NCBI GenBank assembly: GCA_008632985.1
Contig: QPGO01000298.1
Location: forward strand, 48,434-68,433
DNA from: Psammoneis japonica
Taxonomy: Eukaryota
DNA: 20,000 nucleotides
Direction of reading: 5' to 3'
This document shows, piece after piece, positions 1 to 19,719 of this stretch. Below the pieces are notes generated by a model. The model made no database searches and was not told the origin of the DNA. It saw only the letters and a list, made by a program, of their open reading frames with translations. How positions within the stretch are numbered: the stretch's first letter is position 1; every line of letters begins with the position of its first letter. A program made the translations under genes and the position numbers.

Positions 1-65
1 TCTTCTTGTTTGTCATGTTTGATGGAGAATCTGCTGTGCTGATTCTGTTTGTTTGTTTGAGAGCA

Positions 66-81
66 AGAGAGAGAGAGAGAG
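66..81. repeat. (AG)8 microsatellite
   Basis: agagagagagagagag read directly. Confidence 0.85.
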
Positions 82-2754
82 TCAGGCAATGCATGGACAT
101 GCTCCAGCTTCTCTTTTTGAAGTTCACTCATTGCTTGCCAAGCAGAAAAAATGCATTGTGGTGCTCATGTCCAAGATTGTCTCTCTTGTCCATGGTGCCA
201 CCACACAAGGCTGCAACATGACCAAACAGCACAGAGAAGCAAGAAGTGCCCATTGTGATGATAAAATGACTGCCCCTTTCCAATCAGCAGTGTCAAATTT
301 CTTCATTGGTAGAACTGCAATGTCTGGTTTGGCACATGTGGGCATTTTTCCATTTTGTTCAGCAAAAACAGCCCGACTTGTGGGTGATTTCAGCAACGTG
401 TTTATCAAGTGTGCAAAATTCTTGCACATCCTCATCATGGGCTTGTTTTGTCCTGTCGGTCAACATGCAAGTTGCACCACTAAATTTGCCACACTCCAAT
501 TGGTCTGTGTGGTTGTTGGCGCACCATGCAAAGAGGTGGACCCAGTTTGGGCACTGACTTTGTGTGGGTCATCAAGACAAAAACTCATTGAAATGCAACA
601 GCCCCATTTGGCAAAAAGTTCAAGAGATTTTGCCATTTTCTTTGTGGCACACACTGCACCTGCTTTGCATTGTTGGTTGGTGGTGTGACTTCTGCACACA
701 GCTGCAAAGCTGAAAAAGAAATTGTCAAAAACAAAAGCACTTTGCCATGACAACTGTTGTGCAAAATTCCCATGTCACCCAACACAAAATTTTGTTCACA
801 GACAAATGTTTGAAAACGTTCCTCATTTGTGTTTCTGTGGGCATGAGCATTTTTGTTGCTGATGTCCAAAAGTCAAAAGCACTCTTTGTGCAATGCAACA
901 ATCATGCTTTTAAATTGATGACACAACAAACTCTCAACAAACAATTGCTTGCACAACTGAAGAAGTCTTTGTTGGCTCACTGACACATGAGAACAAACAA
1001 AACTTGGCAACAATTGTGTGTTTTGGGTTGGGGTTGAAGCTCCTTCTTTGGGAGTGCTGCTCTCTCCAACACAAAGAGAAGAGGGTCTTGCTCCTCTGTG
1101 CCAGAGCACATTTGCACTTGTGCAATGATCAATTTTGGCCAACGGAGGAGATCTGGTTGGGGAGTGTGCACAAAATTGTGCACAACAAAATGACCATTTT
1201 GGGGCACTTTCGTTTCACACTTCTTGCTGTGACAGGTCTGTGAGGGGCAGTTTCTTCTTTGGCTTCATTGACGAGCATGGGCTGTTTGAGCAAAAGATCA
1301 TGTTGAACCCACAGAGAGGCAGTCGTGAAAGCAAAGAAGGAGCTCCAATTCAAATTTGCTTGACCTTTGAGCCAACAACAAGAATGAGATCATCAAAAAG
1401 CTGGAACTGTGTTGCTTTGTTGCAAATTTTGTCAGTTGCTGGCCCGCCATTCTGTTTTCATGTGAGCCCCAACAACCCTGTTGGCACATGGCAGATTTGT
1501 GATCCAGCTGCATTTTTGGATGATTTCATTGTCTCAGCATTGCCAGCCCACCAGATTTTGGGCTGCACTGCTGGAAGTTGTTGAGTGTTTGGAGAGGTGC
1601 TGTTTGTTCTCTGAGTGTCATTGTGCTTTGTGACAAGCAGGCACACAAGCACTGGGACCTGGGCACACACACAGAGAGTTGCCACAGTGTGAAGCACCTC
1701 CCGCTGGCAGCACCTTGGGATGAAGCAGCAGTTGATTTGAACAACCCTTGGACAAGAAAAGCAAGACAAGATCCAGGATTAGAAAGTGCAGTTTAATGCT
1801 CTGCAACTTGTGTTTGTGTTGTGACAAATTTGGCTGAGAAACATCAAACAGTGTCTGACTTCTTTGAAAGGGCACTCCACTTTTGGAAAAGTGTCACAGA
1901 GAATTCTTTGGCCATCATGAGACTTCCATCTCATTGACCTTTGAATTGATTGTTGCACTGTTTGAATCACACTTGCAACATGATTGAAAATTTAGAGGGA
2001 CAAGATTCTGTGTGTGGGCATGTTTCTGCAATGGCCATCATGAGGGTCATGAGGGGAAGCCCACCTGACAGCCATGTTCAGGGTCGTTTCTTGTCACTGA
2101 CTTGTGTGCTGCTGGAAGACAGTGCTGGTGCTTTTCCATTGCCTTGAATGACATCCTGCCAACATCATGGTTGAATTTTATGTCTTGTGACCTCAACAGA
2201 ATTTTCAAAGGCTGATGGCAAAGGGAGGAAAAAATCATGGTGATGCTCTGGCGGAACACACGCAGCAGCGCATCCAGTGGTGGAGAGTGGCGAAAGCTGT
2301 TGCACATGATCTTTGCCAGCAGATGCAGCAACACAAAGCCAGTTCTCAACCAGTGCTTGCACAAGACATCAAACAGGCATGATGCCTTTGGTGGGATGGT
2401 GGACAACATTGCTTTCAAAATGGTGCATCGTCCACTCAATTTGACGTGAGCATGTCACTCCCTTTTGTCCGAGCACTCCTGTCAGCAAACCTTCTTCTCT
2501 CCCCAGACAGACAGCAAATCATGCCAAAGCAACAAGGCAGGTGTCACTTCAGCTTTGAATGAGTAAAAAAGCAAGGCAGAAATTGTGTGACATCTGTGTT
2601 CAAAAGTGCACAAGCACTGTCGATGCCCATCCGTCACTTGCTTCAAACGCAACAAGCCTGTTTGCAGAGGTGCAAAAACAAGAAACAAAATTCAATGCCT
2701 TTGTCACCAACCTGCCCCAAAAAGCTCAATGCACATCAAACATTTGTGGTTGCC

Positions 2755-3330
2755 TCAGAATGCTGCAAGCAGCACTGAGCAGAGAATGAAGACTCTTGTT
2801 GCAGGGTTGCTGTGAATTGACTTTGCTCGCCGCTGGACACATCAGGCGACGGACTGGTGACTTGCAGCTGTTGCTGAGTGTGGCTTTGTTTGGGAGGGCT
2901 GGTCAGAGTTTTCAAAGCTGGGTGAAAAAAGTCCGGGAAGAATCAGATGATGAAGTTTGTGATGGCTGCACTCAAAGCCGAGTGAATCAATGCAGTTGCT
3001 GCATGAGCTGGTTGTTTTGGGTGTGTCGTGGCCCGTTTTCACATGCACGAGTGGAGGCTTTGTGCAGATTCTGCAACCTGCAGTGTCTTGGTTTCATCAG
3101 GGGTCCCCATCATGGTTTCAAGCTGCTGGGCATTGGAAATGTTGAAACTGTTGGACCACATGTGGTGCGTTCTGTGGCGCCATTTGCCGGAGTGCTTTCG
3201 CCTCGATGCTCTGGCCAGGACACCGAGAGAACATGCAGTTTTGCTCAGCAGTGCTCTGACTTCTCATGGCAATCAGAGCACTGTCAAATGACACATGTCA
3301 CCACCAGTCCACATTTCTTTCAGGAGCTCA
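2755..3330 (-). pseudogene. 5'-truncated, frameshifted paralog of the C-terminal part of the neighbouring beta-propeller surface-protein gene
   Basis: Minus strand reads ELLKEMWTGGDM/SFDSALIAMRSQSTAEQNCMFSRCPGQSIE...HMWSNSFNISNAQQLETMMGTPDETKTLQVAES/KPPLVHVKTGHDTP. The intact gene reads ALLSERWTGGDMSFDGTLIIMRSQSTKRNYMFSRCPGQSVE...YVWSNSFNVPNARQLETMMWTPDGNETLQVAESKKPPLMYTKMNYENP. It ends in a hydrophobic tail PATRVFILCSVLLAAF* at 2755. Confidence 0.9.
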
Positions 3331-3409
3331 TGGTGCTTCGTTCGAAGGTTTTCGAAAATTTTTGGGAAGTTCTAACGTTCACTGTTTTGTGACGATGTTG
3401 TGTGCAGGG

Positions 3410-3426
3410 GTGCGTGCGTGCGTGCG
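3410..3426. repeat. (GTGC)4 short tandem repeat at the domain boundary
   Basis: gtgcgtgcgtgcgtgcg read directly. Confidence 0.75.
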
Positions 3427-3880
3427 TTGCGTTTCCCACACAGCATGTACTACATTCATACTGTACCGTACTGTACATAGACTACAATGACATGCTGAAT
3501 ACGCACCCTTTTCGGATGAACGTCATCATTCAGTATCGGTTTTGTGTGTCATGTACACGACATAACAAATGGTTGGCGCTCGTCCATTGACGAATTACAT
3601 TACGAAGTATTTAACAAATAATGATTATGTTTCTATGCATTCATATTAGACACAATTATGTGTCCACTATGACATTTATTTGATGTCGCAAGAGTATCGG
3701 AAAGTAACAAAACAAGTAGTACTTTCTGTGCGATACTCAACTGAAATCCCGCTTTTGGACTCCTTTGAGTCACAAGATCACAAGTGCATTGAATTGACGA
3801 CTCAAACTTGCTTCAACCGTACATACAGTAGAGAGGTACATACCGACTGTTTTCCACTCTTTATCCGTCATCCAGCTGAA

Positions 3881-5223
3881 TCATAAAATACAATTCGTCT
3901 GAAAAATGGTGTGAAGCATCGCGCAGAAGAATACAGTTTTTGAGGCCATCACGAGCTTCCAACTGCTGGAGGAGTCGAGTGACGACGGACTTGCAGTCGG
4001 AAGTGGTTGACTGGGTTTCGGTGATCCTGGACTTGTAGAAGGCGCGTCAGAGTTAAGCGCATTGGAGTCTGGTACATCAGAGAAGGTGGGTGAAACTGAG
4101 GGTGCCGGTGTTGGAGCTGATGAGGGCTCGTCAGACTCTTCGAGTGCAGCATCATAGTAGTCCTCGCAAGTGTTTATTAGAGCAGGATTTTCGTAGTTCA
4201 TTTTGGTGTACATCAGTGGTGGCTTTTTAGATTCGGCAACCTGCAGTGTCTCGTTTCCATCAGGGGTCCACATCATGGTTTCAAGCTGTCGGGCGTTGGG
4301 AACATTGAAACTGTTGGACCATACGTAGCAAGCGGTGGCGCCACTCGTTAGTGCGCTTTCGACGCTCTGACCAGGACACCTTGAGAACATGTAGTTTCGC
4401 TTAGTACTCTGACTTCGCATAATAATTAGAGTGCCGTCGAATGACATGTCGCCGCCGGTCCACCTTTCGCTCAGGAGCGCATCACTAGTGTTGTACGAGC
4501 CGACGGCTTCCACGGTATAACGAGTGGTTCGATTTTGCCAAGCTGATACCGGAATGCGGTACAAGCGAGTCTTGTCAAAGTCTTGATTACTTTTGCTGAC
4601 AACGTAGAGATCACCAATCTCATTTCCCTCTCCCCAACCTGTGTGATCCATGAAAACTGTCTCGGCGTTAACGGACGATGTCGGAGAAGAAGGGTGCTTG
4701 TAGTCGTAGTTAAGGTAGTCAACATCAGTCAGCGGTACCTCATCGTTGTCACGAAGGCTTTCGATCCTGGGCTCTCGAATCCTGATAATGCGATATGTGT
4801 TGCGACGTTTACGGTTGTCGCCGATATCTGCAATATAAATACAAGTCTCGCCAGGGTAAGACGCACCGCATGTTCCAGTGGTCATGTCCTCCCAATCCCC
4901 ATGTTCTGGGACACTGTCTAGTTTGAAGTGCGAAGACGCTCGCCCGTTGAAGAATCAAAGACAGCAAGACGTCTGTTCCCGCCGTCGTTTATCGCAAACA
5001 ACAAAAGAGCACCTGTGTCTGGATTACGTTGAGTTTGTGAAATACCGATACCGGAAATCTCTTTGAAACTGGGGCCGTTTGGATCATCTATCGTGAGAAG
5101 AGTGCTAGTGTCTGCTTCACCAATTTGAGGACAAATCACATTAGCAGATTGAACACTTCCAAACGACATTAACGTCAGATGGAAGAGAATTACTAAGCTA
5201 CGGCAGCAACAGACCACCCTCAT
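3881..5223 (-). CDS. Secreted/cell-surface beta-propeller-like protein (EISG...NDGG...DWEDM...YIADIGDN motifs) with Ser/Pro stalk and hydrophobic C-tail (possible GPI anchor); apparent 1-bp deletion near 4926
   Basis: ORF 4918-5265 (ATG at 5223, signal-like MRVVCCCRSLVILFHLTLMSFGSVQSA) joins ORF 3881-4885 if one T is restored in cgc act t(t)c aaa cta gac. This gives RTFKLDSVPEHGDWEDMTTGTC, and the motif order matches a family I recall mainly from bacterial secreted hypothetical proteins. Confidence 0.8.
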
Positions 5224-5404
5224 GGTACCGTAAAAAAATGCTGTCGTAATTTGCAACAAGTTCAAAAATTTTGCGCAGAACTTTTTGGCTGTGGCTCACT
5301 TTTCCGGCATACGAATTTCAATCGATTCCACATGAACGTAGAAACTGATCCTTCTGCCCGCCAAAATTCCCACCACGAAAAGTCTCGGGTTATGATGTGG
5401 CACA

Positions 5405-5444
5405 TGACGTCAGGGTCAAGGTTGCCAATGGACGGATGTGACGT
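5405..5444. promoter_or_regulatory. Two TGACGT (bZIP/aureochrome-type) boxes upstream of the propeller gene
   Basis: TGACGTCA at 5405-5412 and TGACGT at 5439-5444, about 180-220 bp upstream of the ATG at 5223. Confidence 0.3.
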
Positions 5445-5969
5445 CGTCCAGTCTTGGTCCAGTCTACCGTCTACCGTTACAGCCCTACTTCTCAACTCTG
5501 TGTACTGAAGTCGTAGCTCTAGAGTTACACTCTCTAGGGCCCTCTTTCTCTCTCTAGAGATGGAGTATTCATAGCTAGTACTTTAGAGATAGTGGTGTGG
5601 CACCTCTGCGACAACTACGTACCGTTAGGACCGCTGCAGTATGGGGGAGTAGGGCTAGGTTACGGTATGGTAGAGAGCATCGATCGTCGCACCGATTTTT
5701 TTTACGACAACACAACGGTGCGTCGTACTTTATCCGTGTAAACAGTCTCGTCTAGTCGTCGACGGAGGAGGTCGAATGCGATGACGAGGGTGAGGTCATC
5801 GACGACATGCGGTGAGAATTCGACAATTGCTTTCCATACGTAATCGGGACGGACAAGCTACTAACTAGCCACGATTGGTGAAGCAGAGCAAAACTTTGCC
5901 CTAACCCAACCTGGTAAACACACCATCTCTATCGTCTTTTCTTCCTATTGTTCTTCTACTATTTTTAGT

Positions 5970-6820
5970 TTAGGCGTACGGATTACCACCGGAATAGACT
6001 GTTTGATAAAACTCAATTGTTTCAAAAATGGTCTTGTGATTCACTAGCTCTTGAGCACACATACCAGCCCATCCCAACATGGCCAACCGTCCATGAGAGA
6101 GCTCTTTGGTTTGCATTCGTTGAAACGCGTAATTTTCTGTGGGCTTCAATCCCAAAGGATCAAAACCCAAATCGCCCGGGTAGTAGGAGTCCCTAAGAGT
6201 CCATAGCGTCTTGGAACCAATGCGAAACGTGGGTTCGACCCATCCCTTTTTCGCGCGATACAATTCAGCTGCCGCAATTACAGTTGTCAATAAAGCAAAT
6301 GCAGGAGCTGGAACTTGTTGTAGTTGATCGTTGGCGGGTCCAAGAATGTGAAATGGTCCACTGACCGCCTCTCCAGCCAAGTACCCACAACGGCAACCAT
6401 GGCTACTCGACCGTGCTGAACTTCAGCCTCACGCAGTCGCTTTGCGTCATTCAGTGGCAGTCCTTGTCGGGCAAAGCCAAGAGGATCAAAGAATCCAGTG
6501 GGAGCAATTGCGCCTGGAAGTCCCCATAGAGCGTAGTCTTCTTTCGGAACCCAGCCGTTGATAGGTGCAATGTCAATAGCAACGGCGGAATTAGTGGCCA
6601 CTACGGCATCAATCATTTGCGTTTCTTCTGGAGGAGACTCGTCGCTTAGAATCTCGTAGTATACGTCATCTTCGGTATCCTTTGCTGGTTCTTGTTCCGA
6701 GGGAGAGGACGAAAGGATGCTCGACGACAGATGCGCATGCTTTGGTTGTTGAGACGACACAAAGCCCGAGGCTTGAGCCGTCAAAAATGCAGATACGGCG
6801 AAGAATAAAGAACGGTTCAT
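5970..6820 (-). CDS. Lhcx: Light-harvesting complex protein, Lhcx/LI818 (LHCSR-like) family, plastid-targeted; apparent 1-bp deletion at 6384-6386
   Basis: Signal peptide plus ASGF motif (MNRSLFFAVSAFLTAQASGF), LPGAIAPTGFFDPLGF, helix 1 REAEVQHGRVAM, GWVEP, YYPGDLGFDPLGLKP and helix 3 MQTKELSHGRLAML. The two ORFs join as VVGYLAGEAV if one G is added to the GGG run. Confidence 0.9.
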
Positions 6821-7068
6821 TGTGCGTTTCAAATGTAACTTTGTGAGGTCGTTCTGTTGTTGCGTTCATGGTGGCGAGGCATCACCACCTCACAAGTCGT
6901 CATCGCTTGCCGATTTGGTCCGATTTTGTGAGTCAGGTCAGTCGTCGGAGGTCGGAGGGAGTTTTCAGATAAAAAACATATGAGTTAGCCGGGGTAGGGC
7001 TAGTTGGTCGCGCACGTTTGGGTTCGATGTGATGAGCAACTAGCCATACCCTGCAGGAAGAGCTGTTG

Positions 7069-7186
7069 CTGGCGCGCGAGCAGAAGCAACAAAGCAAAGA
7101 ACACGGCGTGGGTCAAAACGTTGTAAAATGACGCAACAACAAGCAACGAGAAGAAACCCAACTTGACCCATGAATACAGCGCATAC
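7069..7186 (-). other. Possible spliceosomal intron (GTATGC...TTGAC...pyrimidine-rich...CAG, 118 bp) in a small unidentified transcript starting near the ATG at 7263
   Basis: Donor, branch-like and acceptor motifs with plausible spacing; the ATG follows AACAACACC. The spliced product (~70 aa) is not recognisable. Confidence 0.3.
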
Positions 7187-7700
7187 ATATTGTCCAACCA
7201 CTTCAATAGTATCTCGTATTCCCAACTTGTAGATGAGGGGACGGCGTTCGCGTTTCTCGCCATGGTGTTGTTGTGCGTTATCGTGTTGTTTGCGCGCGAA
7301 GAACACGGGATCTATTTATCCGATAGTGACTCTGTTTTGGTAATAGTAGATTTTTTACTATATTCAATACAGATTCTAAAATGTGTTTCGGGGTGTTCCT
7401 CACTTTTTTGAATTTGGGTATGTATATTTTAAAGACCTAAGAAATGTTAATGATATGTAAAACCCTAAGAGACCTACATAAATTTATGTTCCATGTAGAC
7501 CGCGTAGATTGTGTACCGGCGGAAAATCCACCGCCTGTCAACTCATCAGTAGTAATTCTACGTATATTCTACTTACACCTCACACACGCACACACGCCTA
7601 CACAGTCTAATAACCGCGCACACGTGCGCGAGATAAGGCTATGGACATACTATTTCGTTTTTACTCCTTAATGTTTATACGTGACCGAAGAATAATATTG

Positions 7701-7731
7701 AAAAATCAAAAAATCAAAAAATCAAAAAATT
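7701..7731. repeat. (AAAAAATC)~4 tandem repeat at the left edge of hypermutated domain 2
   Basis: aaaaatc aaaaaatc aaaaaatc aaaaaatt read directly. Confidence 0.8.
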
Positions 7732-7885
7732 CGGGATTCGCAATCCCCTTGCTGCGATGACGATGACTGGCGAAACGAGAAGCCTCCTGCTGTCACACGA
7801 CATGAGCCACTCAACGCAACAATTTATCAAACAACGACCTTCGATCAATGGAACAAAGGTCGAACCTCCTCCAACTACAAAAGGG

Positions 7886-9722
7886 ATGATCGCAAAAGTG
7901 AGAATGAAAAAGACCAGCAACTCCTTTCCATTGCGACTGGAACTGCAGTTGATTGTCGCCGTTGCAGCTCCACCCCGCATGAGAGCAGAGTGCAATTTGT
8001 GCCCACCAGAATCCTTGTTATTTGCAGATCGGATTGTTCCATTGTCCGGCTACAACACGCCTCCACCCCCTCAAACTTGTCAAGAAGCCTCACACAAGCC
8101 TTGCTTTTTGACAAAACCACTGCTGATTGCACAGAGTTTGTCTCGGTCCATCAACTTTTCTGCTGCAGCAATGTGCAACCACCAGGCTGCTTGCTTTGCC
8201 CCAACAGAGACACTCCACTTCTTCTGGACCACATTGATGTTGTGGTTGATGATTTGTCAACGAAGTTGGTGGAGGAGGGGGGTTGGACAATTGCGGCCAG
8301 CACTGGCATGGCTTTGCCGTCAAGTTTGAAAAAGAAGTGCGACAAGTTCAATGACCTGCTGGGACAACTCTCAACAAGAGCATGGGATGACTTTGTCTTC
8401 CAAAAGCTCTGAGCCTTCTGGGTAGAGTTGACAGTTCCCAAATCCCATCGGTGGCACTGCCCCATTGCAGCCACACCAAAACGGAGCAGGTGAAGTCACC
8501 ACACGTGGAACCACCGGAAGGCCATGGAGAATGTTCCCTTTGCCCCAAAGGCTCAACGCTTTTGAACACTGGCTTGATGCCAGATTTTTATGGCTTGTGC
8601 AATTTGGAATCTTCTGCTCTTCGTGTTGGCAACGAAGAGTGTGGGAATTTCCGAGCAGCTCACGGAATTGGCCAAGTCATGTGTTGCAAAGATGTCGAAC
8701 CACCAGGATGTTTTCTGTGTCCAGATCAAGGCGAGTTCAAAAGGCACTTTAATTTTCCCATTGCTCTTTCTGCTGGGGCATCTTGCAACTCTTGCATGGA
8801 TCTTTTCAGGGACGCGCTGGCCAATTGTGACGAGGCTCAATGCACGGACTTGGAAAGCTCTGGTGCCTCATTTCTTTGTGGCTGCGAAGGAGCAACCGAT
8901 CCTGCCTCTAGGACATGGCAACTGTGGCCCACATCTTTGTCCAGAGGGAGTGGAGCTCTGGAGTGACTGTTTTCAGTTTGGTGGAAATCCATTTGTGAAC
9001 TCATGTGGTGATGCCGAGGCCGAATTAGCGCGCGTTTCCGATGATGAATGTGAGAGTTTTTCAGACCGCTTTCGGCCGTTTTGTTGCCGAGGCTTTGAAC
9101 CCAGAGGCTGTTTCCTTTGTCCCAGTGGAAACTGTTCCATTGTCACTTGCATTGATGGAGGGATGTCCATCACAATTGGGAATTTTACAACTTCCAGCTG
9201 CCAAGAGTTAGATCAGAAAGCAGCCTCATCCTTCATGGCTGAACAATGTCAAGAACTCGCGTCCTCAGATGCTGCTTGGCAATGTGGCTGTTGGGAGAGT
9301 GTCACTTTGGTGACTCCTTCACTGGCAATGCCCACTCCATCTGCTTCCAAGCCAACAACTGCGTCACCTTCTGTGCTCAAGTTCCAACAACCCCCATCCC
9401 GACCACTCTCTCGCCAACGTCGTGCGCTCCAACTGCTGTCACGCCAGCAACTGTGCTCCCCTCTGCCCCAGTTCCAGCAACACCCATCCCATCCACCCTC
9501 TCCCCAACAACCCCCGAACCGACTGCCACTTTTCAGCCAGCAGTGACTGAGCCCCCTTCACCCTCTGCTCAAGCAGCAAATGCAACGGATTCTCCTGCCA
9601 CGACAGCGACTCCGCCTTCCGCCACTCTGTCACCGACGACTTCTCATGCTCTTGTTGTTTCATCCATGATGGAGATTCAGTCAATCCTTGTTCCTTGTTG
9701 GGTGGTGCAAATTTCCATGTAG
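7886..9722 (+). pseudogene. Frameshifted Cys-rich cell-surface protein gene: three CxLCP...CC-x3-(E/Q)P(P/R)GCxLCP modules, a Pro/Thr/Ser mucin-like stalk and a hydrophobic C-tail
   Basis: Pieces in successive + frames: AECNLCPPES; FCCSNVQPPGCLLCP; ECSLCPKG...MCCKDVEPPGCFLCP...FLCGC; HLCPEG...FCCRGFEPRGCFLCP...WQCGC; VPTTPIPTTLSPT...VPATPIPSTLSPT; LVVSSMMEIQSILVPCWVVQISM*. Confidence 0.8.
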
Positions 9723-9749
9723 AAAGTTCACTGTCTCTAACATGGGGTT

Positions 9750-10950
9750 GTGACCAAGTTTGTCTGGCTCCAACAAGTGCAAATGTTGGAATTCCTGGCC
9801 ATTGTTCCTTTTAATTTGATCAATTCAAATGTCATCGGACTGTCATCCACTCCATGGATGATCTGCATCTCCAAATGCCTCAGCATCGTCAGGGTCTGGG
9901 ATTGGGAAAATCACAACATTCACTCCATCCGGAGTGGCAGGATGGAGGCCGCCACACTGATGGGTGCACCTCCGTGGGATTGCACCTGCAAATCGCAAGT
10001 GCCCACCGCTGCTTTGTGCACACAGACCCACTTGTTGTCCGCCACACTGATGGCACGACAGTGTTCCATTGGACCACCTGGACATTGCATCTGTGCCAAG
10101 GACAAGTGTCTCATCTAAGGTCTTGCTCCTCCCTGCCCTGGAGCTGTCCTGTTGCCAGAGCTCGACGACAGAGCTGCGCTCCCTCGCGATTCTCTCCCAA
10201 CAAACAGTGGGCCGCCGCAGCCTGCATGATGTGACTGGCATTCTCTGGATCACATTCCATCAATGCCATGGCGGCCCGGCGATGAACCTCGAGCCTTGGT
10301 CCATCACCCGAATCAACATCAATGGCTTCAGCACGGGCATGTCTGCACACTCCCACTGAGGCTTCAATTGACAATTCCCGGTGTTGCGGCGTGTCCGCAC
10401 TAATTTGGAGTGCCCACTTGAGCGCTTCCCCTGGATTTCCTCCTGCCATGCAGCACGTGCAACACGTGTCACACCTTGACTCATTGATCCTTGGACAATT
10501 GTCCAGGAGCATTGGCGCGACTTTTTGCACAATGGACCATGCTTCCTTGGGTCGCTTTCCAACCTCACGCAACAAATTGGCACAGGTTGAGCTCATTTTA
10601 GTGTCCTCCGGCCATCGCTCGCAGTTCTGCGGCATGACGCTGTGCTGTGTTCTTGTGCAAGTCACATTTCTGGTTCGACTTCTTTCGCAAGTTTTCACCC
10701 TTGATGCAACGCGTCAAGGGTGGATTGACCAAATGAGCCTGTGGCGACAAACTTTCGTCTTCAGCACTCGCCTCTGGTTTGTGACAAGCAGTGCATGGAT
10801 GAGCACCGGGTGTCGTTGTACATTGTTTGAGTCTGGCGACGGACTGTTGAGAATCACACCAGACCCTCCATTCAGTGCCTTTCCTTGCTCACTCTCAAGT
10901 CCTGTGATTGTCACAAGCGTGGATGTGGCGATGACGTCTTCGTTCTCCAT
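9750..10950 (-). pseudogene. Decayed gene with an N-terminal VxIxGLxSxxGxxLNGxxGxI...R(Y)PV module followed by TPR-like helical repeats
   Basis: MENEDVIATSTLVTITGLESEQGKALNGGSGVIL...QRHPVLI, then in another frame STCANLLREVGKRPKEAW...ECDPENASHIMQAAAAHCLLGENREGAQLCRRALA. This looks TPR-like when C/H are read as former Y. Several frameshifts; the 3' end is approximate. Confidence 0.6.
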
Positions 10951-11101
10951 TGCTGTTCTAAAGAGGAGGAGGCACACAATCTCTCTGGTAGAAGCATCAT
11001 ACAAAAGCTGTGTGATTGGCCTCTGGTGATCAGCAGTGATCCACTCCCGGCTTGGGAGGTGGTGGCAGTGATCCGATTTTGAGAGATCTGTCATGACGAA
11101 A

Positions 11102-12556
11102 GTTGTGAAAACCGATTCTCAAGAATCCGGGTGCCGATTCTTAAGAATCTGATTTCCGTTGAACGCAAAATTCGAGCTCGATGTGCGTGCTCAACGGACG
11201 ATTCACAAGTTCCGCCGTCCTGTTTTCTTGGGGGGGTCATCCCCGCGTTTGTCCCAAAATTGCCGCTGCATTTGAATGAGGTTTTTTGTGGTGTTTATTT
11301 TTGAATGCAAGAATTGTTCACAGTCACACCTGATCGCGCACGAAAACGAGAACCATCACCACCGCGACCGAAGCACGACGATGATGACAATCATCGACAT
11401 TTCTCAAAAACGCAGTTTGCCGTCTACCAACTTTTCATGCATGTGCAATCTTTGACACATGACAAACATAAAATGAATGAGAGTTGGCAGACGGACCACC
11501 TCCGTCACAGACTTGTGGCTTGTTGTTTTCACCGCGGTGAAGCACGGTGAAATTCAGGAAAAATCATGCAAAATGCGAGCTGTTCGGCCGAATTCGAGCT
11601 AAAACAAGTGGCAACCGACCACCCTTAAGAATCGAAGTTCGATTCTTGAGAATGGCTGTCACTGATTCTTGTGAAAACTCCTGACACATCATTCATTCAC
11701 CAATTTAAAATTGTGGCGTCACGTGCATTTAACCCCAAAAGAATGGATGTGAATGTAAAGCGATTTTCGTAAAGACTTCAAAGCTGTGAACGACAATGGC
11801 GGCTTTGATGCAAGAAGCGACACCATTCAAGACATTGCGATGAACACTTCAACCTCATTTGACAGTGCTCAGTTTGTGACACTTGTGAGAGTCTTGCTGT
11901 GCTTTGAAAGCCGCTCTGGAGTCGAAAAAACCGTCGAAACACTCATGCGCCGATGTTGTTGTCATGCTCTCTCGACCGAAAAAGCAATGAAGAAGTCAAT
12001 TCTTCTCAGATTTTTCGATTCATTAACATGCAAGCTGTCAAGATGCAACACATGGTTGATTGTTGGGACTGTTGATTGACTTCTCGTTGACAATGATCGC
12101 CATTTTGACTTTGGATTCATGTGACAGATTTTTCACAAGAGTTCCCTTTTCACAAGATTCCAATTCGTGGCACGAGCTCCGATTCTCAAGAATCGATTTT
12201 CACAACAATGGCAATCTTTCGCGCTGTAGAGTCATTGCGTAGAAATCATGTGGGACAGTGCCAAGTCAAGTCTGTCTGTCTGTCCTTAGTGAATTTTAAC
12301 TTTGCGAAAAATGGATTTGACTGTTTTCTGATCAGGCGCATTTTTCTTCAACACATTTGCAAAAACACGCCTGACCCGACAACAGTCAAGTCCATTTTTG
12401 CACAAATTGTGTGAACATGACAGTTTCAGTGCAAAAATGTGTGGATTCTACAGGCGTCCTTAATTAATTTGTGGGTCACACGTCACGGGTCATTTTCAAA
12501 AGATTCCCATTGATTCGGTCTCCGATTCTTCAAGAATCGTCGATTCTCAAGAATCG
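11102..12556. repeat. Clustered palindromic motif (C)GATTCTTAAGAATC(G) and variants; possible termini or sub-termini of a non-autonomous DNA element
   Basis: Copies at 11114-11127, 11136-11149, 11624-11634 (partial), 11641-11653, 12181-12194, 12524-12538 (+1 nt) and 12542-12555. 11102-11127 and 12181-12206 form a 26-bp inverted repeat with 3 mismatches. Confidence 0.75.
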
Positions 12557-13123
12557 TCGTAACAGATCCAATGGATCCACAAGTCGTCGTGTGTCGTGCG
12601 TGTGTGTGTGTTGTTCGTGGGTGCATGTCCGTCCTTCGTCTCAGGCGAGGAAGGCCTGTGCACCCGCGTCGCACCCCGTCCCCTCAGGTGCTGTTGTCAA
12701 GGTTTTTTCCGCACTTTGGGTGCAATTGTGACACTCAACTATGGCCACAATTCTTGTTTCGCAATCATGACGAGAGAAGCTTGATTGTCACTTGCTTCAT
12801 TGTGCCAGTTTGTTCTTTGTTTTTCTTGTGTCTTTTTGGGAGACTCTCCTTGCAAGGAGTGGCACAGCTGGCGAGAGATGTGATCGAGAGACATTCACAC
12901 ATGGGGCAAAGCTGCAAGAAATGTTTTGGGAAATGTGCAGAGAAAGTGCTTCACCCGATGCAACCAAACAGTTCAAAGAGAATGCAAGAAACATGATGAT
13001 GCCATGCACCACTCTCGGGGAGCGCCACTCTCGGGGAGAGACGACTTTCTTGTGTGTGTGCTGCTGGGCAAAAGTTGCCACTGGCAGCACACACATTTGA
13101 ACCTCGCTGTTGTGCTGCTTGCA

Positions 13124-13139
13124 CTCTCTCTCTCTCTCT
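13124..13139. repeat. (CT)8 microsatellite
   Basis: ctctctctctctctct read directly. Confidence 0.85.
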
Positions 13140-14278
13140 GTCCTGCTTTGATGGTGTGCTGCAGGGGTGAACAAAAAGCAACAGTGTGCTCTGCCACAAG
13201 CCATTTGGACCTGCTCCTGCCTTCGTTGGGCATGCTGCTGTGCTGCTCCCATGCTGCTCCTCCTGCTGAGGACAATCTTCCTTTGCCCAGTGGCACTTCC
13301 AAATGGGGTTGCAGATGGAAACCCTGATCAAGTGTCCTGCTTTTGTGTGTGGTGGTGGCACGTCATCTCTCTGTCTTCTTCTTCTTGGAGTGCTCTTGCG
13401 CAGCTGTGATGATGGCATGCACACACACAAACACCAGACACACCAGCCACTCTGCTTTTCAGAGGCTCAGATGACAGCTCCACACTCTCTGCAGCAGAGC
13501 CACTCTCCATTGTGAGTCCATGCGTTGACCGACATGCGTGCTCGCCACGAACACCAGGTCACCTCACAGACTCTCAGAGAATTCAGACAGATGGTGTGTT
13601 CTTGTGCCCTCTGGCATGTGTTGTGTAGAAGTCTGTGCACAAACTTTTTTGTGCTTGTAAAAATGTGACACATCCACAAGAGCACCGGAACACATTGACT
13701 GCTGCATGTGACCCCAGCGCACAGTTTGTCTGCATTCTCCTCTGAGAGTCTGGTGTGAGGTGACCCGGGTGTGTGAAGTGCACTTGCATCAGTTTTTATG
13801 CTCAGACTCATGATGGAATGTACTGCAGAGCAGCAACAAGAGCAAGCAAGAGGTGTGAATCCTGACCATGTTGCAAAGGTCACCTGCAGGCAGCCACAGG
13901 CTGCTCTGCCAGTTTTTGGAGAAAATTTGCCAAAGAAGACACTGCTGCTGTGTTTCGACGATTTCGAACCCCCCCCCAACTCTGCATCATCAAAACCCTT
14001 TATGAGCCTGGTTTCCCATGCCCTCTAAGCCAAAGCCAATGAAAATAAGAAAACTGTTCAACATGGAGAATCAAAAAGGTGGCTTCTCCTGTGGAACCGT
14101 GTGCGATGCGGGCAATGCAAGACGAGCGCGACAGACGGACATACAGAAAAAATCGAAAAAGCCGCGACGACAACATCCAGAAGCCAGGAGCGATGGCCAT
14201 GAACCGGCAGCGGCGGCACTTTGTTGAACCCACACAACATCTTTCGACCTACTAGTACCCTCCACTTACTGTTCCATC

Positions 14279-16855
14279 ATGACTGATTCCAACAAGGACG
14301 ATTCATTGTCGTCGTATCAACGCCCGTCGCCGCTGTTGGAACGCTTGATGCAACCCCAGAAGAATCCGTCTCTGACTCTTTCGTCCAACCAACAATGGAT
14401 CGCCTTTGCCGACGAGCCACCACTGCCGTCCATTTCGGATCTAGCACAGCCAGAAGAAAAATTGGCGGGTCTTCGGTTTCATCCTGAGCTCTTGACACGG
14501 TCCCGTTTGGAATGGGCGACGGGTCTCACTCTGCAACACTTGGAAACGGGCCACCGCATAGACGTGCCAATGCCCGAAAATGCAGAGGGGATTCGGTATA
14601 TTCGATTCAATCCAAAGTATTATCAGACGACCGACGATAGTGACATTCAGCAAGAATTTGTTCTTGTTTGCAAAGTCAAGGACGAAAAATCGTCGACTCC
14701 GAGATTGGAATTGCATCGCGGTCAACTTACCGGACGCGATGCAGGTTCTTGGCGGTGGAGCATGACTTGTATGGATTCTCTATTGCCATTCAAATTAAAT
14801 TTGATTCAAGGATGCCCTTTTCAGTTTACCAGTGATGGGAATTATCTATTGGTGGACGTGGTTCCTCAAGACCACCCGTCAGAGCCACCGCCCACGCCTC
14901 TTTCGGTGGGTCCGGCCATTCAACAAGTACGAAAGGGTGCTCGCAAGGCACCCGGGCGCACCTATCAAGATTTGCTGCAGAATCAACACGATCAAGACAA
15001 ATTAAAGTATTACGTGACGACTGAAGTTGTGAAAGTGCCTTTGGAAAAGGACGCTGGTGATTCCGTGCAAGTTCTGCCGCAATCGGTGGGTGGTTGCCTG
15101 TTTCAGAGTTTCTCGTGCAGTCCAAACGGACGCTTTCTCTTGGTTCAGCGTGTCAATCCCGAGTTGTTGTCCTACTCGGTCCCGTACAGTCGATTCGGCA
15201 AGATTGTAGAGCTCTGGGATTTGCATTGTTCTCAAAGCATCACGGTGGCCTCCTTGCCCGTGGACGATGAAATCCCATTGAGTTACGATGCCTGTTCTCG
15301 TCATGTTCGGCGATTTCGGTTTCATCCCCTTGATGATTCGACCATTCTTTATGCACATGCCTTGGATGGCGGAGATCCGGCACGTGAGGTTGAGGAGGGA
15401 AACTTTCGGGATGCCTTGTACACGCGCAACTTGCAAGTAGACGACGACGACGACGACAGCACGATGGCGTTGGGTGATCCGATTCAACTGGTGGGTCTCG
15501 AGTGGCGTTATGACGATGTCGAATTTACCGAATCGGGTTTGATTGTTGTGGATGAATATCGTTGGAAGGATCGCATGGAGCGCAAATGGAAAGTCGCAAG
15601 TGATGGAAACAAGACTTTGGTGTGGGAACGATCGTGGGAGGATCGTTACACGTCCCCGGGGGCACCCGTCACTCGACTGGGTCCACGGGGCCAATCGTTC
15701 ATTGTGGAACCAGAACCTCGTGTCATTTTCCTCAAGGGAGCCGGAGCATCTCCTTTGGGTGATCGTCCCTTTTTGGATCGACGGCGTTTGGATACGGGTG
15801 CGTCCGAACGCCTTTGGCGATGCAAGGCTCCAAAAGAAGGAGACATTCCCGACCTTTCCTTGGAAGTGGGTGGTGTTGCACCAACGGACCGTGACGATGT
15901 GTTTGAATCGGTCGTCATTTTACTACCGGATAACGAACGTGTGCTCATGAGTCGTGAAAGCAAAACGACGCCAAGAAACTACTATCTCACGTCGCTCAAG
16001 GATCTCAGCGACCAAGTAACTGTAACTACCTTTCCGCATCCCCAAGTTGACTTGCTGGGTGTGACTAAAGAATTGGTCACGTATGAACGCAACGATGGTG
16101 TCACGCTGACAGCTAATCTGTATTTGCCCAAGGACTATGACGGCACACCACGACCAACGCTCTTTTGGGCGTATCCTCGAGAGTTCAAAAATTCAAAGGC
16201 TGCCGGACAAGTCAAGGGGAGCAAACACAGGTTTGTATCGGCCTCGTGGGCATCACCGGTTCATTGGGCAGCCAAGGGATGGGTCATTATGGATGACTTT
16301 GCGCTTCCAGTTATTGGAGAGGGTGACGCACAACCCAACGATAACTTTGTAGATCAAATTGTGTCGGGCGCCACAGCTGCCGTGGAGTATGTAACCAAGC
16401 GTGGTGTTTGCGATCCAGCGAAATGTGCAGTGGGTGGTCATTCTTATGGGAGCTTCATGACGTCCCATTTGCTGTCGCACACGAGTCTATTTGCGGCTGG
16501 CATTGGTCGCAGCGGTGCCTTCAATCGGACCTTGACTCCGATGTCCTTTCAATCCGAAGACCGCAGCATGTGGGAAGCACCCGACACATACATCAACATG
16601 TCGCCCTTGATGCACGTCGAAAAGTATTCCAAACAAGACCGTGTGGGAAAACTCTTGTTGATTCACGGGAAGAACGATGAGAACAGTGGAACGCATCCAA
16701 TGCAGTCTGAGAGATACTTCTCCGCCTTGAAGGCTTTTGGAATTGAATCGCGACTCTGCATGTTGCCGCACGAGCGACACTCCTATCGGGCCAAGGAATC
16801 TATTTTGCACATGGCGTGGGAACAAGAAACATGGCTGGCGAGTTTGGAAGAATAA
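14279..16855 (+). CDS. Prolyl oligopeptidase family S9 serine peptidase, glutamyl endopeptidase (cGEP/S9D)-like, 858 aa
   Basis: Intact intronless ORF; YQRPS start motif, EEKLAGLRF, RTYQDLL, YERNDGVTLTANLYLP, WAYPREF, nucleophile GGHSYG, LLIHGKNDENSGT (Asp) and LPHERHSY (His). Confidence 0.93.
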   Translation: MTDSNKDDSLSSYQRPSPLLERLMQPQKNPSLTLSSNQQWIAFADEPPLPSISDLAQPEEKLAGLRFHPELLTRSRLEWATGLTLQHLETGHRIDVPMPENAEGIRYIRFNPKYYQTTDDSDIQQEFVLVCKVKDEKSSTPRLELHRGQLTGRDAGSWRWSMTCMDSLLPFKLNLIQGCPFQFTSDGNYLLVDVVPQDHPSEPPPTPLSVGPAIQQVRKGARKAPGRTYQDLLQNQHDQDKLKYYVTTEVVKVPLEKDAGDSVQVLPQSVGGCLFQSFSCSPNGRFLLVQRVNPELLSYSVPYSRFGKIVELWDLHCSQSITVASLPVDDEIPLSYDACSRHVRRFRFHPLDDSTILYAHALDGGDPAREVEEGNFRDALYTRNLQVDDDDDDSTMALGDPIQLVGLEWRYDDVEFTESGLIVVDEYRWKDRMERKWKVASDGNKTLVWERSWEDRYTSPGAPVTRLGPRGQSFIVEPEPRVIFLKGAGASPLGDRPFLDRRRLDTGASERLWRCKAPKEGDIPDLSLEVGGVAPTDRDDVFESVVILLPDNERVLMSRESKTTPRNYYLTSLKDLSDQVTVTTFPHPQVDLLGVTKELVTYERNDGVTLTANLYLPKDYDGTPRPTLFWAYPREFKNSKAAGQVKGSKHRFVSASWASPVHWAAKGWVIMDDFALPVIGEGDAQPNDNFVDQIVSGATAAVEYVTKRGVCDPAKCAVGGHSYGSFMTSHLLSHTSLFAAGIGRSGAFNRTLTPMSFQSEDRSMWEAPDTYINMSPLMHVEKYSKQDRVGKLLLIHGKNDENSGTHPMQSERYFSALKAFGIESRLCMLPHERHSYRAKESILHMAWEQETWLASLEE

Positions 16856-17151
16856 ACGTCCTACTAGACTACACCACCTCTCTAGAGAGGATTCTGATAT
16901 CCAATATTACAGAGTGCATCTCTTAGATTTTCTTTGTGTTTATGATGGCAGGGTATAAGATGTTTTTACGAAGTATGTATGAAATTATAATAGCGTGTCC
17001 GTGTTCCATGTGACGGAGGATGCGCGAAAAAGCTGACGATGCCGCATAACAAATATTTTGACACGTGACAACAAAATCTGGGACACTTCACTATCATCAC
17101 ACAGATGACAAAGATGTAGCATGGCGGCTTTCGTAACGATGTAAATGAACA

Positions 17152-17853
17152 ATGCTTTGCTGGAGGATCGTTTTGATAGTTTGGGTAGCGTGGCTTATGC
17201 CCTGCTTGATTGTTCCGGTTGCTGCAATGACGCGGCGACAGGCTCTGCAAGAACTGGGCCTCGAAAATGGCTCTTTCACGCAGCAAGAGCTCAAGAAAGC
17301 CTACCGTGCACGAAGCCTCCAGACACATCCAGACAAGGGCGGCTCACACGAAGCCTTTATTCGAGTTGCCCAAGCTTATGAATTACTCTCTGGTTCTGGT
17401 ACTCACAAATTCCATAGCAACGAGCGTGATCACGATCGTAGAAGTCGAGGTCGTGAAAATCAAGAGCAACAAAGAGAACGACAAGAGGAGCAACAACGCC
17501 AACAGCAAGAGCATGATAATGAGGAAAAGACACGTCAACAGGAAATGTTCGAAGAAGCAGAAGACATGCTCTTTGACATGTTTGAAGACTTCTTTTCCGG
17601 AAACTATGCCGACGTTGTCCTGGACAAGATCTTTCCACAAAAAAACTTGACGCGAAACCAAGGGTTTGCCAAATACTGTCTTCGCTGGGCTGTTGATCGC
17701 CTTACAGACAAGGCTTTGTGTCTGTTGGAAGAAAGCGAATTGACCATTCACATTGACGGCCATACCTACTTTTCAGCATCTAGTTTTAGAGAGTGGCGAG
17801 ACCGCGTTCGTCAGAGGAGACAGAAAAAGCAACAGCATCATTCTGAATTCTAG
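17152..17853 (+). CDS. DnaJ (J-domain) protein with signal peptide and C-terminal HSEF (HDEL-like ER retrieval), 233 aa
   Basis: Hydrophobic N-terminus, ELKKAYRARSLQTHPDKGGSHEAFIRVAQAYELL J-domain with HPD, Q/E-rich linker, ends HHSEF*. Confidence 0.88.
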   Translation: MLCWRIVLIVWVAWLMPCLIVPVAAMTRRQALQELGLENGSFTQQELKKAYRARSLQTHPDKGGSHEAFIRVAQAYELLSGSGTHKFHSNERDHDRRSRGRENQEQQRERQEEQQRQQQEHDNEEKTRQQEMFEEAEDMLFDMFEDFFSGNYADVVLDKIFPQKNLTRNQGFAKYCLRWAVDRLTDKALCLLEESELTIHIDGHTYFSASSFREWRDRVRQRRQKKQQHHSEF

Positions 17854-19602: not shown

Positions 19603-19719
19603 GGCTAAACTGACACGTTGTGATGAGAAGTGAATGGAATGGAGCCGCCGCGTCGACCCAGTGCTGCTCTGTTGCTCGCTCACATCACGCACGGCTGACG
19701 CCTAGTAGAGAGCACTAGC

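Follow-up and report, generated by a model that had tools for sequence, protein, structure and literature searches.

Two domains in a 20,000-base stretch of the genome of the diatom Psammoneis japonica (the window) are depleted of TpA dinucleotides, and this regional loss is real. We consider it likely that both domains were hypermutated from TpA to TpG or CpA by A:T to G:C transitions, which were confined to these regions and proceeded until TpA was nearly spent. The change leads away from TpA, is restricted to this dinucleotide, consists of transitions only, affects both strands, stops at sharp limits and is independent of CpG. A first-pass annotation of the window had proposed that a second process beside CpG decay turns T:A into C:G at TpA, a claim that is borne out by a paralogous gene fragment, by repeat copies, by a palindrome and by the mass balance of the dinucleotides.

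Composition and limits of the TpA-poor domains

Positions 1-3447 had been described in that annotation as poor in TpA, low in CpG and rich in CA and TG, and this description was exact. In total, 11 TpA were counted against 248.5 expected from base composition (observed/expected, o/e, 0.04), together with 47 CpG (o/e 0.26), 367 CpA (o/e 1.92) and 417 TpG (o/e 1.75). The stretch has an A+T content of 54%, and AA and TT are enriched (o/e 1.32 and 1.28). At the density of the local baseline, which was taken from the unaffected parts of the window (3450-7700 and 14100-20000; TpA o/e 0.61), 141.6 TpA would be expected instead of 11 (binomial P = 3e-47). The longest TpA-free runs within 1-3447 measure 869 and 809 bases. 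The right edge of domain 1 is sharp, as 250-base bins contain 0-4 TpA up to position 3250 and then 9, 20, 9 and 10; the true edge lies at about 3360-3440. Domain 1 continues past the left end of the window.

Domain 2, which is larger than domain 1, had been overlooked in the first-pass annotation. It contains 45 TpA in 6250 bases, compared with 256.7 expected at the local rate (P = 2e-61). Its left edge (~7740) comes after a run of (AAAAATC)n (~7700-7735), and its right edge (~14000) is some 250 bases upstream of the start codon of the S9 peptidase gene. The three edges are located to within ~100 bases, and neither terminal inverted or direct repeats nor target duplications were found at them. 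Domains 1 and 2 show no similarity to each other by blastn and tblastx. Across both domains the o/e of AA and TT is 1.2-1.3, and the GC content is not raised (0.46 vs 0.47-0.51 elsewhere). Mild avoidance of TpA is seen window-wide (o/e 0.39-0.76).

CpG and TpA are depleted together in domain 1, in 7751-10700 and in 12561-14000; in the older stretches of domain 2, CpG o/e amounts to 0.39-0.54. The insert zone at 11100-12560 is younger than the rest of this domain. TpA loss does not depend on CpG loss, because this zone combines a TpA o/e of 0.15 with a CpG o/e of 1.13; here TpA was exhausted ahead of CpG decay, which is an argument on relative rates only. The older parts of the domains have also undergone CpG decay, a second process that is slower and presumably reflects deamination of 5-methylcytosine (5mC). 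Relative to the local baseline, 139 TpA and 149 CpG are missing from domain 1 (sum 288), which has a surplus of 271 CpA and TpG, while domain 2 lacks 196 TpA and 172 CpG (sum 368) and has a surplus of 303. The earlier suggestion that CpG and TpA both drain into CpA and TpG is thus supported in both domains.

Domain 1 looks non-coding, because its period-3 signal does not exceed 2.2, and within both domains coding periodicity was detected only around 9301-10200. Long ORFs are open in many frames of both domains, and they overlap in several frames because TAA and TAG were lost. When the six read-through frames of domain 1 and of domain 2 were compared with Pfam, no family was found, and a Pfam search with 23 ORFs of the window gave no family inside either domain. 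Viral or transposon protein domains were not recognisable in domains 1 and 2, and neither reverse transcriptase nor LTR was found there by Pfam searches of the frames and a terminal-repeat search. ORF 8578-9543 had 0 matches among 1.84 billion representative sequences, and a search for relatives of ORF 10286-11026 returned none. Viral contigs were scanned twice for relatives of the domains with no match, and two protein-atlas look-ups for domain ORFs were uninformative (scores 0.77-0.82, low recognition).

Features of the window with their coordinates and strand (o/e, observed/expected)
Feature	Position	Strand	Details
TpA-void domain 1	1..3360	.	TpA o/e 0.04, CpG 0.23, CpA 1.91, TpG 1.76
Decayed partial copy of the adjacent gene, inside domain 1	2983..3331	-	residues about 160-269 of ORF 3884-4954
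Right edge of domain 1	3361..3450	.	GCGT-type simple repeat at ~3410-3432; TpA back to normal from ~3437
Lineage-restricted gene, intact, normal composition	3884..5250	-	apparent two exons, 3884-4906 and 4927-5250
Chlorophyll a/b-binding (FCP/LHC) gene, normal composition, between the domains	5973..6865	-	PF00504, E 1e-19 and 2e-12, two exon ORFs
High-copy repeat, TpA not depleted, directly left of domain 2	6981..7640	.	internal control
TpA-poor domain 2	7751..14000	.	TpA o/e 0.11, CpG 0.62, CpA 1.52, TpG 1.61
High-copy MITE-like insert zone in domain 2	11100..12560	.	CpG o/e 1.13, TpA 0.15; depth 1150-7900
14-nt palindrome GATTCTTAAGAATC, five copies	11114, 11136, 11641, 12181, 12542 (span 11114..12555)	.	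5 vs 0.06 expected
S9 prolyl-oligopeptidase-family gene flanking domain 2	14279..16855	+	PF00326; CpG 1.09, TpA 0.39

Direction of the change

Polarising substitutions in a paralogue alignment had been proposed as a check along with the first-pass annotation, and the fragment of the neighbouring gene inside domain 1 allowed this. Positions 3050-3331 are 77% identical to 4215-4482 (blastn; tblastn E 5e-12), and the intact copy at 4215-4482 keeps an open frame. Over 272 aligned columns there are 53 differences, comprising 10 TA>CA/TG, 13 CG>TG/CA and 30 others. The intact copy contains 11 TpA and the domain copy 0; all 10 aligned TpA were lost via A>G or T>C with no transversion, and the 11th lies at a gap. 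Half of the TpA bases (10/20) were changed by transition, compared with 7/111 of the other A/T bases (Fisher P = 7e-6), which is the excess over other A/T contexts that the proposed process predicts. The outcomes, 6 CA and 4 TG, are interleaved within 280 bases. Outside TpA and CpG, AT>GC and GC>AT transitions are equally frequent (7 and 7). CpG bases were also affected, as 13/40 were changed by transition vs 7/101 of the other G/C bases (P = 2e-4).

In 11262-11716 of the insert zone, 14 of the 18 listed variant sites read TG or CA in the window and TA in other genomic copies; these sites come from a list of the 40 differences with the best support, out of 1433. The listed site 11001 runs in the opposite direction, with TA in the window and TG in another copy. 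The palindrome GATTCTTAAGAATC also occurs in this zone, and none of 200 shuffles reached 5 matches (0/200). As the palindrome is symmetric, its ancestral centre would be TA; the central TA is kept in 1 of 5 copies, while 3 copies have CA and 1 has TG. Judged by sequence comparison, the paralogue, the repeat copies and the palindrome all indicate a change from TA to CA/TG, with small samples for polarity (one paralogue of 280 bases and 18 sites in repeats).

In the domains CpA and TpG are about equally frequent, and a runs test and block overdispersion gave the same picture as in normal regions. Processive single-strand deamination would yield clusters of either CA or TG that are coordinated by strand, but none were found beyond background. 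The surviving TpA lie mostly in TTA and TAA contexts.

Flanking genes and an unaffected repeat

The genes that adjoin the TpA-poor DNA have normal composition and the edges are sharp, and the restriction to domains claimed in the first-pass annotation therefore holds. The gene at 3884-5250 (period-3 signal 4.6-4.9) has three distant homologues, which belong to no Pfam family and whose tblastn matches cover 4010-5250. The best relatives of the S9 peptidase are 60-66% identical and come from the diatoms Cylindrotheca, Skeletonema, Pseudo-nitzschia and Thalassiosira, which places the host among the diatoms; a metagenome scan with this protein gave 4 contigs of 1.7-3.7 kb, which leave no room for genomic context.

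Domain 1 is about single copy in sequencing run X1 (depth about 73-128); among the runs listed as containing the stretch there is no RNA run. The repeat directly left of domain 2 reaches a summed contig depth of 2500-5200, compared with about 75-130 for unique DNA, and its 250-base bins contain 11, 25 and 22 TpA. Of its 11 listed variant sites, 0 pair TG or CA in the window with TA in other copies.

Alternative explanations for the TpA deficit

There is only a very slight chance that the deficit is technical, with a base modification at TpA that was miscalled throughout or a mispolished assembly. Region-specific DNA modifications do exist in protists, and X1, the sole run that contains this sequence, possibly derives from the sample used for the assembly. 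Contigs of this run (k-mer depth about 73) match 1-3137, 3110-3924 and 13501-14248 with 0 differences, and a contig over 12541-13530 shows 2. A base-calling artefact is unlikely because contigs from accurate reads reproduce 1-3137; an error-free, unitig-based contig of 3.3 kb requires accurate and self-consistent reads. Further, mixed TG, CA and TA calls would be expected from a modified pair or from an I:T pair left unresolved, and none is listed in 1-3447; the matching CpG loss and the secondary shifts of GC and AT dinucleotides are as for real substitutions. The read check suggested with the first-pass annotation thus agrees with the TpA-poor sequence of domain 1; since X1 is possibly the assembly's sample, assembly error is excluded, but an independent isolate is not provided. 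The same annotation had put forward gap filling in methyl-C repair by a Pol-eta-like, error-prone polymerase recruited to T:G mismatches from 5mC deamination. The WA hotspot of somatic hypermutation takes in TA as one of its two motifs, and the joint depletion of CpG and TpA in domain 1, in 7751-10700 and in 12561-14000 speaks for such a coupling. The coupling is disfavoured, however, because TpA was lost in the insert zone despite intact CpG, because AA and TT, which make up the rest of the WA hotspot, are enriched, and because each of the 10 aligned TpA in the paralogue disappeared through a transition, whereas Pol eta also yields A>T and A>C. In addition, the strands were hit equally, and we regard this proposal as very unlikely.

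Selection or constraint against TpA, exerted by a TA-cutting nuclease or transposon target, by nucleosome binding or DNA flexibility, or by stop-poor coding, would agree with the mild avoidance of TpA window-wide and with the long ORFs in many domain frames. These multi-frame ORFs are simply a result of the loss of TAA and TAG, and apart from the region around 9301-10200 there is no coding periodicity, protein family or homologue that would point to constraint. As the gene fragment and the inserted repeats were converted after arrival and CpG decay points to neutral, silenced DNA, selection appears highly improbable. Somewhat less remote, and still improbable, is an arrival of the DNA in an already edited state, either by ADAR-like A-to-I hyperediting of an RNA intermediate followed by reverse transcription or as an intrinsically TpA-free viral genome; a related idea is GC-biased gene conversion in a recombination hotspot. 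ADAR prefers a 5' U and foreign DNA is the target in Bigelowiella natans, both according to the accessible text of a recent preprint (bioRxiv 10.64898/2026.01.13.699255), and the sharp edges of the domains resemble insertion junctions. One RNA strand would nevertheless give one outcome, whereas CA and TG are mixed within 280 bases of the paralogue and across the domains, and a host gene fragment and host repeats were converted as well. The edges lack terminal repeats and target duplications, Pfam searches revealed neither a reverse transcriptase nor a viral domain, and AA is not depleted, which argues against ADAR hyperediting, as ADAR accepts a 5' A besides a 5' U. Gene conversion is at odds with AA, TT and AT being still abundant and with the unchanged GC content.

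A candidate mechanism

Because AA and TT are not depleted, only transitions occurred and the loss does not depend on CpG, strand-symmetric deamination of adenine at 5'-TA fits the hypermutation of the domains. The agent would be an enzyme acting on DNA at this motif, where it would convert adenine to hypoxanthine by deamination. By analogy, a TadA/ADAT-like DNA adenine deaminase fits as candidate agent, and a TadA/ADAT2-type enzyme is a natural candidate since in its tRNA substrate A34 follows the invariant U33, i.e. 5'-UA. Such an agent may disfavour TAA, and it may be targeted to transcriptionally silent or 'non-self' chromatin and not to repeats as such. The likely outcome would be an irreversible inactivation of the domain content, either as genome defence or as a heterochromatin by-product.

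A wider reading, which we put forward tentatively as a real possibility, is that diatoms possess an active, chromatin-domain-directed deamination of DNA adenine at 5'-TA, which would act on both strands without dependence on cytosine methylation or repeat status and drive silenced or foreign DNA to TpA exhaustion. It would represent an ancient SAR-wide defence, because the signature is common to a diatom and a chlorarachniophyte, and would be a mirror of fungal repeat-induced point mutation (RIP) and a natural adenine base editor of double-stranded DNA.

If enzymatic and targeted, the process would be a second kind of eukaryotic hypermutation defence besides RIP and APOBEC, one based on adenine, and the enzyme behind it would be of direct interest as a TA-specific adenine editor that occurs naturally and works on chromatin. 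There are also practical consequences. TpA-void, CA/TG-rich blocks misguide gene finders through the overlapping ORFs that appear once TAA and TAG are lost, converted repeats and viral insertions escape similarity searches, and estimates of mutation spectrum and GC equilibrium would be biased.

Comparison with known systems

Fungal RIP resembles the process described here in being regional, saturating and based on dinucleotide-specific transitions that inactivate DNA, with a bimodal dinucleotide composition beside normal genes. Its direction is opposite, since RIP turns CpA into TpA and yields AT-rich DNA, whereas here TpA was lost, CpA and TpG were gained and GC remained unchanged. RIP also requires duplication and mutates both copies, while here the copy at 4215-4482 keeps its 11 TpA, unique DNA was affected and the adjoining high-copy repeat was spared. 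Fungal RIP was ruled out by the reverse direction and the intact duplicate copy. Deamination of 5mC at CpG shares the CpG deficit (o/e 0.23 in domain 1 and 0.39-0.54 in older domain 2) with a gain of TpG and CpA, and it covers the CpG deficit and about half of the CA/TG surplus. It cannot remove TpA, and in 11100-12560 TpA was lost without loss of CpG.

Enzymes of the TadA/ADAT2-ADAT3 type, among them the engineered ABE editors and amphioxus BjADAT2, share the 5'-UA context, the A>G change and a reported activity on DNA, which for BjADAT2 is cited in the available part of the B. natans preprint (bioRxiv 10.64898/2026.01.13.699255). It would be a novelty for this family to act on double-stranded domains that are defined by chromatin. 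The accessible text of a survey of deaminases describes the stramenopile deaminase-SAM-tudor proteins and the LmjF36.5940-like deaminases as lineage-specific (Iyer et al., 2011, PMC3239186). The tudor arrays of the former could read chromatin or RNP marks. According to the same portion of the survey, both groups belong to the CDD/CDA (cytidine-type) clade and some members are inactive (PMC3239186), and any link of these proteins to the TpA signature is pure speculation.

The closest precedent was recently described in the chlorarachniophyte B. natans, where regional TpA>TpG/CpA hypermutation was detected by mutation accumulation (Mettrop et al., bioRxiv 10.64898/2026.01.13.699255). In the text of the preprint at hand, the de novo rate comes to about 6e-7 per site per generation in two viral regions that are integrated and silent, and the authors propose an adenine deaminase and name an ADAT2-like candidate. 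The signature was thus already described, and in this respect the first-pass annotation, which took it to be undescribed, has been overtaken; a full-text literature search returned the B. natans preprint only and no diatom report of TpA hypermutation. Diatoms are not mentioned in the accessible part of the preprint, whose supplements may list further species, and TpA hotspots are not mentioned in the available portions of mutation-accumulation papers on Prasinoderma and Phaeodactylum.

As far as the accessible text of the preprint goes, B. natans shares almost exclusive A>G and T>C changes, the restriction to TpA, TpG and CpA outcomes on either strand, the confinement to regions and long-term clusters in which TpA is scarce and CpA+TpG is raised. 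Both diatom domains fall within the thresholds given there for such clusters (Rho TpA at most 0.43, Rho CpA+TpG at least 1.52). The hosts differ, with a stramenopile here and a rhizarian there, and the diatom case would take the phenomenon from a single preprint on a rhizarian alga to major marine primary producers, which would argue for a wide and possibly ancient spread. Unlike in B. natans, again as described in the accessible text, the targets in the window contain no recognisable viral or transposon gene; they comprise a host gene fragment and MITE-like repeats, with CpG decay on top, and the process is known here from sequence and not from a de novo rate. Depletion is near saturation (o/e 0.04-0.11), compared with 0.45 in the NCLDV region of B. 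natans. The diatom domains therefore go beyond the precedent in three points, namely the saturation, the uncoupling from CpG decay and the conversion of host-derived DNA.

Two TpA-depleted domains in the window

The first 3447 bases of the window are complex sequence rather than a simple repeat, and in them TpA occurs 11 times against 248.5 predicted from base composition (o/e 0.04), exactly as counted in the first-pass annotation. The stretch is 54% A+T; CpG is low (47, o/e 0.26), CpA (367, o/e 1.92) and TpG (417, o/e 1.75) are in excess, and AA (o/e 1.32) and TT (o/e 1.28) are enriched. In the normal parts of the window (3450-7700 and 14100-20000), which served as local baseline, TpA o/e is 0.61, CpG 1.06, and CpA and TpG 1.18 each. 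At the TpA density of these parts 141.6 TpA would be expected in 1-3447 (binomial P = 3e-47). The longest TpA-free runs measure 869 and 809 bases, and the right edge is abrupt, with 0-4 TpA per 250-base bin until 3250 and then 9, 20, 9 and 10. The depletion noted in the first-pass annotation was thus confirmed for this domain (domain 1), but a second and larger one of the same kind (domain 2) had been overlooked. It holds 45 TpA against 256.7 expected (P = 2e-61), with o/e values of 0.11 for TpA, 1.52 for CpA and 1.61 for TpG. Together both domains make up ~48% of the window, and the neighbouring genes have normal composition.

Coordinates of the features in the window
Feature	Coordinates	Remarks
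Domain 1	1-~3360	edge ~3360-3440
Duplicated gene segment	3050-3331	in domain 1; 77% identical to 4215-4482
GCGT-type simple repeat	3410-3432	exactly at right edge of domain 1
Lineage-restricted gene	3884-5250 (-)	intact, homologue-supported
Intact paralogous segment	4215-4482	within 3884-5250 (-)
Upstream repeat	6981-7640	directly upstream of LHC/FCP gene; adjoins domain 2; TpA normal
(AAAAATC)n simple repeat	7700-7735	exactly at left edge of domain 2
Domain 2	~7751-14000	TpA-poor
First ORF of domain 2	8578-9543	
Part with coding-like signal	9243-10231	includes Pro/Thr/Ser-rich open frame without recognisable relatives
Second ORF of domain 2	10286-11026	
High-copy segment	11100-12560	in domain 2
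Palindrome copies (five)	11114-12555	GATTCTTAAGAATC
S9 peptidase gene	14279-16855	composition normal
LHC/FCP, DnaJ protein and ankyrin protein genes		with S9 peptidase, between and beside domains; composition normal

The sequence itself was compared with reads. A public sequencing run (X1) contains 91% of the words sampled from 1-10000, and its k-mer contigs (depth ~73) show no difference to 1-3137, 3110-3924 and 13501-14248, and two to 12541-13530. Contigs of such length are error-free only if the reads are accurate and internally consistent. X1 may be the sample from which the assembly was made; it thus excludes errors of assembly or polishing, but is no independent isolate. Mixed calls, such as a modified base that persists or an I:T pair would produce, are not listed in 1-3447.

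The direction of change is from TpA to CpA/TpG

Three comparisons within the window bear on the direction of change. The duplicated gene segment in domain 1 was aligned with its intact paralogue over 272 columns, of which 53 differ. TpA number 11 in the intact copy and 0 in the domain 1 copy, CpG 20 and 6. The differences comprise 10 TA>CA/TG (6 TA>CA, 4 TA>TG), 13 CG>TG/CA and 30 others. Changes A>G or T>C affected 10/20 TpA bases versus 7/111 other A/T bases (Fisher P = 7e-6), and 13/40 CpG bases were changed versus 7/101 other G/C bases (P = 2e-4). At sites outside TpA and CpG, transitions were balanced (AT>GC 7, GC>AT 7).

The second comparison concerns repeat copies, since bins 10673-12673 reach a summed X1 contig depth of 1150-7900 versus 75-160 in unique DNA. 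Among the best-supported 40 of 1433 differences, 18 fall in 11262-11716, and at 14 of these the window has TG/CA where other copies have TA; of the other four, one (11575) is ambiguous and the remaining three are differences of another type. The opposite direction was seen among the same 40 at one site, 11001, outside this interval. The equally high-copy, TpA-normal upstream repeat, used as control, showed the TG/CA-versus-TA pattern at 0/11 listed sites. Thirdly, five copies of the 14-nt perfect palindrome GATTCTTAAGAATC are present where 0.06 are expected (five were reached in 0/200 shuffles); at the centre, TA is kept in one copy, whereas three have CA and one has TG. These copies are probably ends or cores of MITE-like elements.

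By sequence comparison, in small samples from one window, the difference is polarised by the paralogue, the repeat family and the palindrome symmetry. These comparisons support the core proposal of the first-pass annotation, a TpA-specific T:A>C:G process beside CpG decay.

TpA conversion and CpG decay are separable

Relative to the local baseline, 139 TpA and 149 CpG (sum 288) are missing from domain 1, which has a CpA+TpG surplus of 271; for domain 2 the deficits are 196 and 172 (sum 368) and the surplus is 303. Secondary shifts, GC up and AT down, are as expected from GTA>GCA, TAC>TGC, ATA>ACA and TAT>TGT. The high-copy segment, which is evidently younger than its flanks, has a CpG o/e of 1.13 and a TpA o/e of 0.15; in the older flanks the values are 0.39-0.54 and 0.06-0.10. 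As TpA was lost here while CpG is intact, TpA conversion is much faster than CpG decay and independent of it. These are two separable processes, not one.

Content of the domains and neighbouring genes

No Pfam family was found among 23 ORFs or 12 read-through frames of the domains, and neither viral-contig scans nor protein-atlas look-ups gave a match. For the first ORF of domain 2, a search of 1.84 billion representatives gave no relative, and relatives sought for the second were not found either. Many overlapping long ORFs in the domains exist because TAA and TAG were lost. The period-3 signal is at background (<=2.4) except in 9301-10200 (5.1), compared with 4-7 in the flanking genes. The Pro/Thr/Ser-rich open frame included in 9243-10231, the sole depleted part with a coding-like signal, is possibly the relic of a gene for a secreted or cell-surface protein.

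The domains show no mutual similarity and their edges no terminal repeats. According to X1 depth, most of both domains is approximately single copy, so the process is not confined to repeats; the untouched upstream repeat (summed contig depth 2500-5200) indicates that repeat status alone is not sufficient either. Either this repeat was inserted very recently, or its site is not part of the targeted chromatin. In X1 contigs, 7501 is joined directly to 12328, so that 4826 bases are skipped, and 13596 is joined back to 6981. These joins suggest that the repeats framing domain 2 also exist in different genomic arrangements, or as tandem or circular forms. In the simplest reading the targeted unit would be a chromatin domain, and the gene fragment and MITE-like inserts lying or landing there would have been converted.

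The closest relatives of the S9 peptidase (60-66% identity) are from Cylindrotheca, Skeletonema, Pseudo-nitzschia, Thalassiosira and Fragilariopsis. As all are diatoms, the host is a diatom, without close relative in the protein collection. The next-best, non-diatom relatives are bacterial (38-40% identity, full length; named ones include Krumholzibacteriia and Eisenbacteria), which hints at an old bacterial origin of the diatom gene. For the lineage-restricted gene, one internal segment of which was duplicated into domain 1, no more than three homologues, all distant, were found among 5.8 billion proteins. It matches no Pfam family, and its product has a C-terminal region rich in Ser and Pro, and a hydrophobic tail. 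A second X1 contig, probably the other haplotype, differs in this gene at four listed sites over 4046-4433, two of them TA/CA or TG/TA, and by one inserted base at 4926.

Mechanism

The changes are A:T>G:C transitions at TpA only, on both strands at fine scale, near saturation and with sharp limits. Domain 1 has 361 CpA and 403 TpG, domain 2 has 583 and 637, and strand clustering above that of normal regions was revealed neither by a runs test nor by block overdispersion. The 55 surviving TpA are preceded by T in 26 and by A in 3 cases (85 and 107 of 417 in normal DNA, P = 3e-5) and followed by A in 25 (82/417, P = 1e-4). Read on either strand, this bias makes TAA the refractory and TAT the most susceptible context, with TAC and TAG predicted to lie in between.

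Error-prone synthesis by a Pol-eta-like polymerase, put forward in the first-pass annotation, does not account for these data: AA and TT are enriched in the domains, only transitions are found, and TpA was lost even with CpG intact. GC-biased gene conversion likewise fails, as GC content shows no rise and AA, TT and AT are retained. ADAR-like RNA editing followed by retrotransposition is contradicted by CA and TG outcomes interleaved within 280 bases and by host sequences converted in situ.

We consider it very probable that a mutational process targeted at TpA and restricted to domains has been at work here. Chances are about even that it consists of DNA adenine deamination, in which adenine at 5'-TA would be enzymatically converted to hypoxanthine. 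TadA and ADAT2 act on tRNA A34, which is preceded by the invariant U33, and this substrate would be a natural source of TA specificity. An ADAT2-like enzyme was proposed for Bigelowiella natans in a preprint (Mettrop et al., bioRxiv 10.64898/2026.01.13.699255), and Iyer et al. (2011, PMC3239186) mention deaminases whose role is unknown, stramenopile-specific deaminase-SAM-tudor and LmjF36.5940-like ones. All of these are no more than leads. That the process is an active, targeted defence system is a tentative reading, to which we give somewhat less than even chances.

Comparison with known systems

In a full-text literature search, no report of the TpA>CpA/TpG signature in diatoms was found, and the accessible part of a Phaeodactylum mutation-accumulation paper mentions no hotspots. 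Fungal RIP is the functional counterpart, but works by the opposite chemistry and requires duplication, unlike the process described here. The first-pass annotation's view that there was no prior description no longer holds, given a single recent preprint on a different lineage, B. natans (10.64898/2026.01.13.699255), which in its accessible part mentions neither diatoms nor stramenopiles. As stated there, 231/302 de novo nuclear mutations lay within two integrated viral regions, where, with one exception, every change was A>G/T>C, these all at TpA, at ~6e-7 per site per generation. The genome has 124 clusters of TpA-poor, CpA+TpG-rich 1-kb windows (cut-offs: Rho TpA <= 0.43 as well as Rho CpA+TpG >= 1.52), and both domains clear these published values by a wide margin. 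The host there is a rhizarian, whereas here it is a stramenopile; TpA o/e is 0.45 in its giant-virus region, in contrast to 0.04-0.11, near saturation, in our domains. The domains also differ in having no recognisable viral or transposon genes, in the conversion of host-derived sequence and in the superimposed CpG decay. With these differences, we file the process under the newly described B. natans kind of hypermutation.
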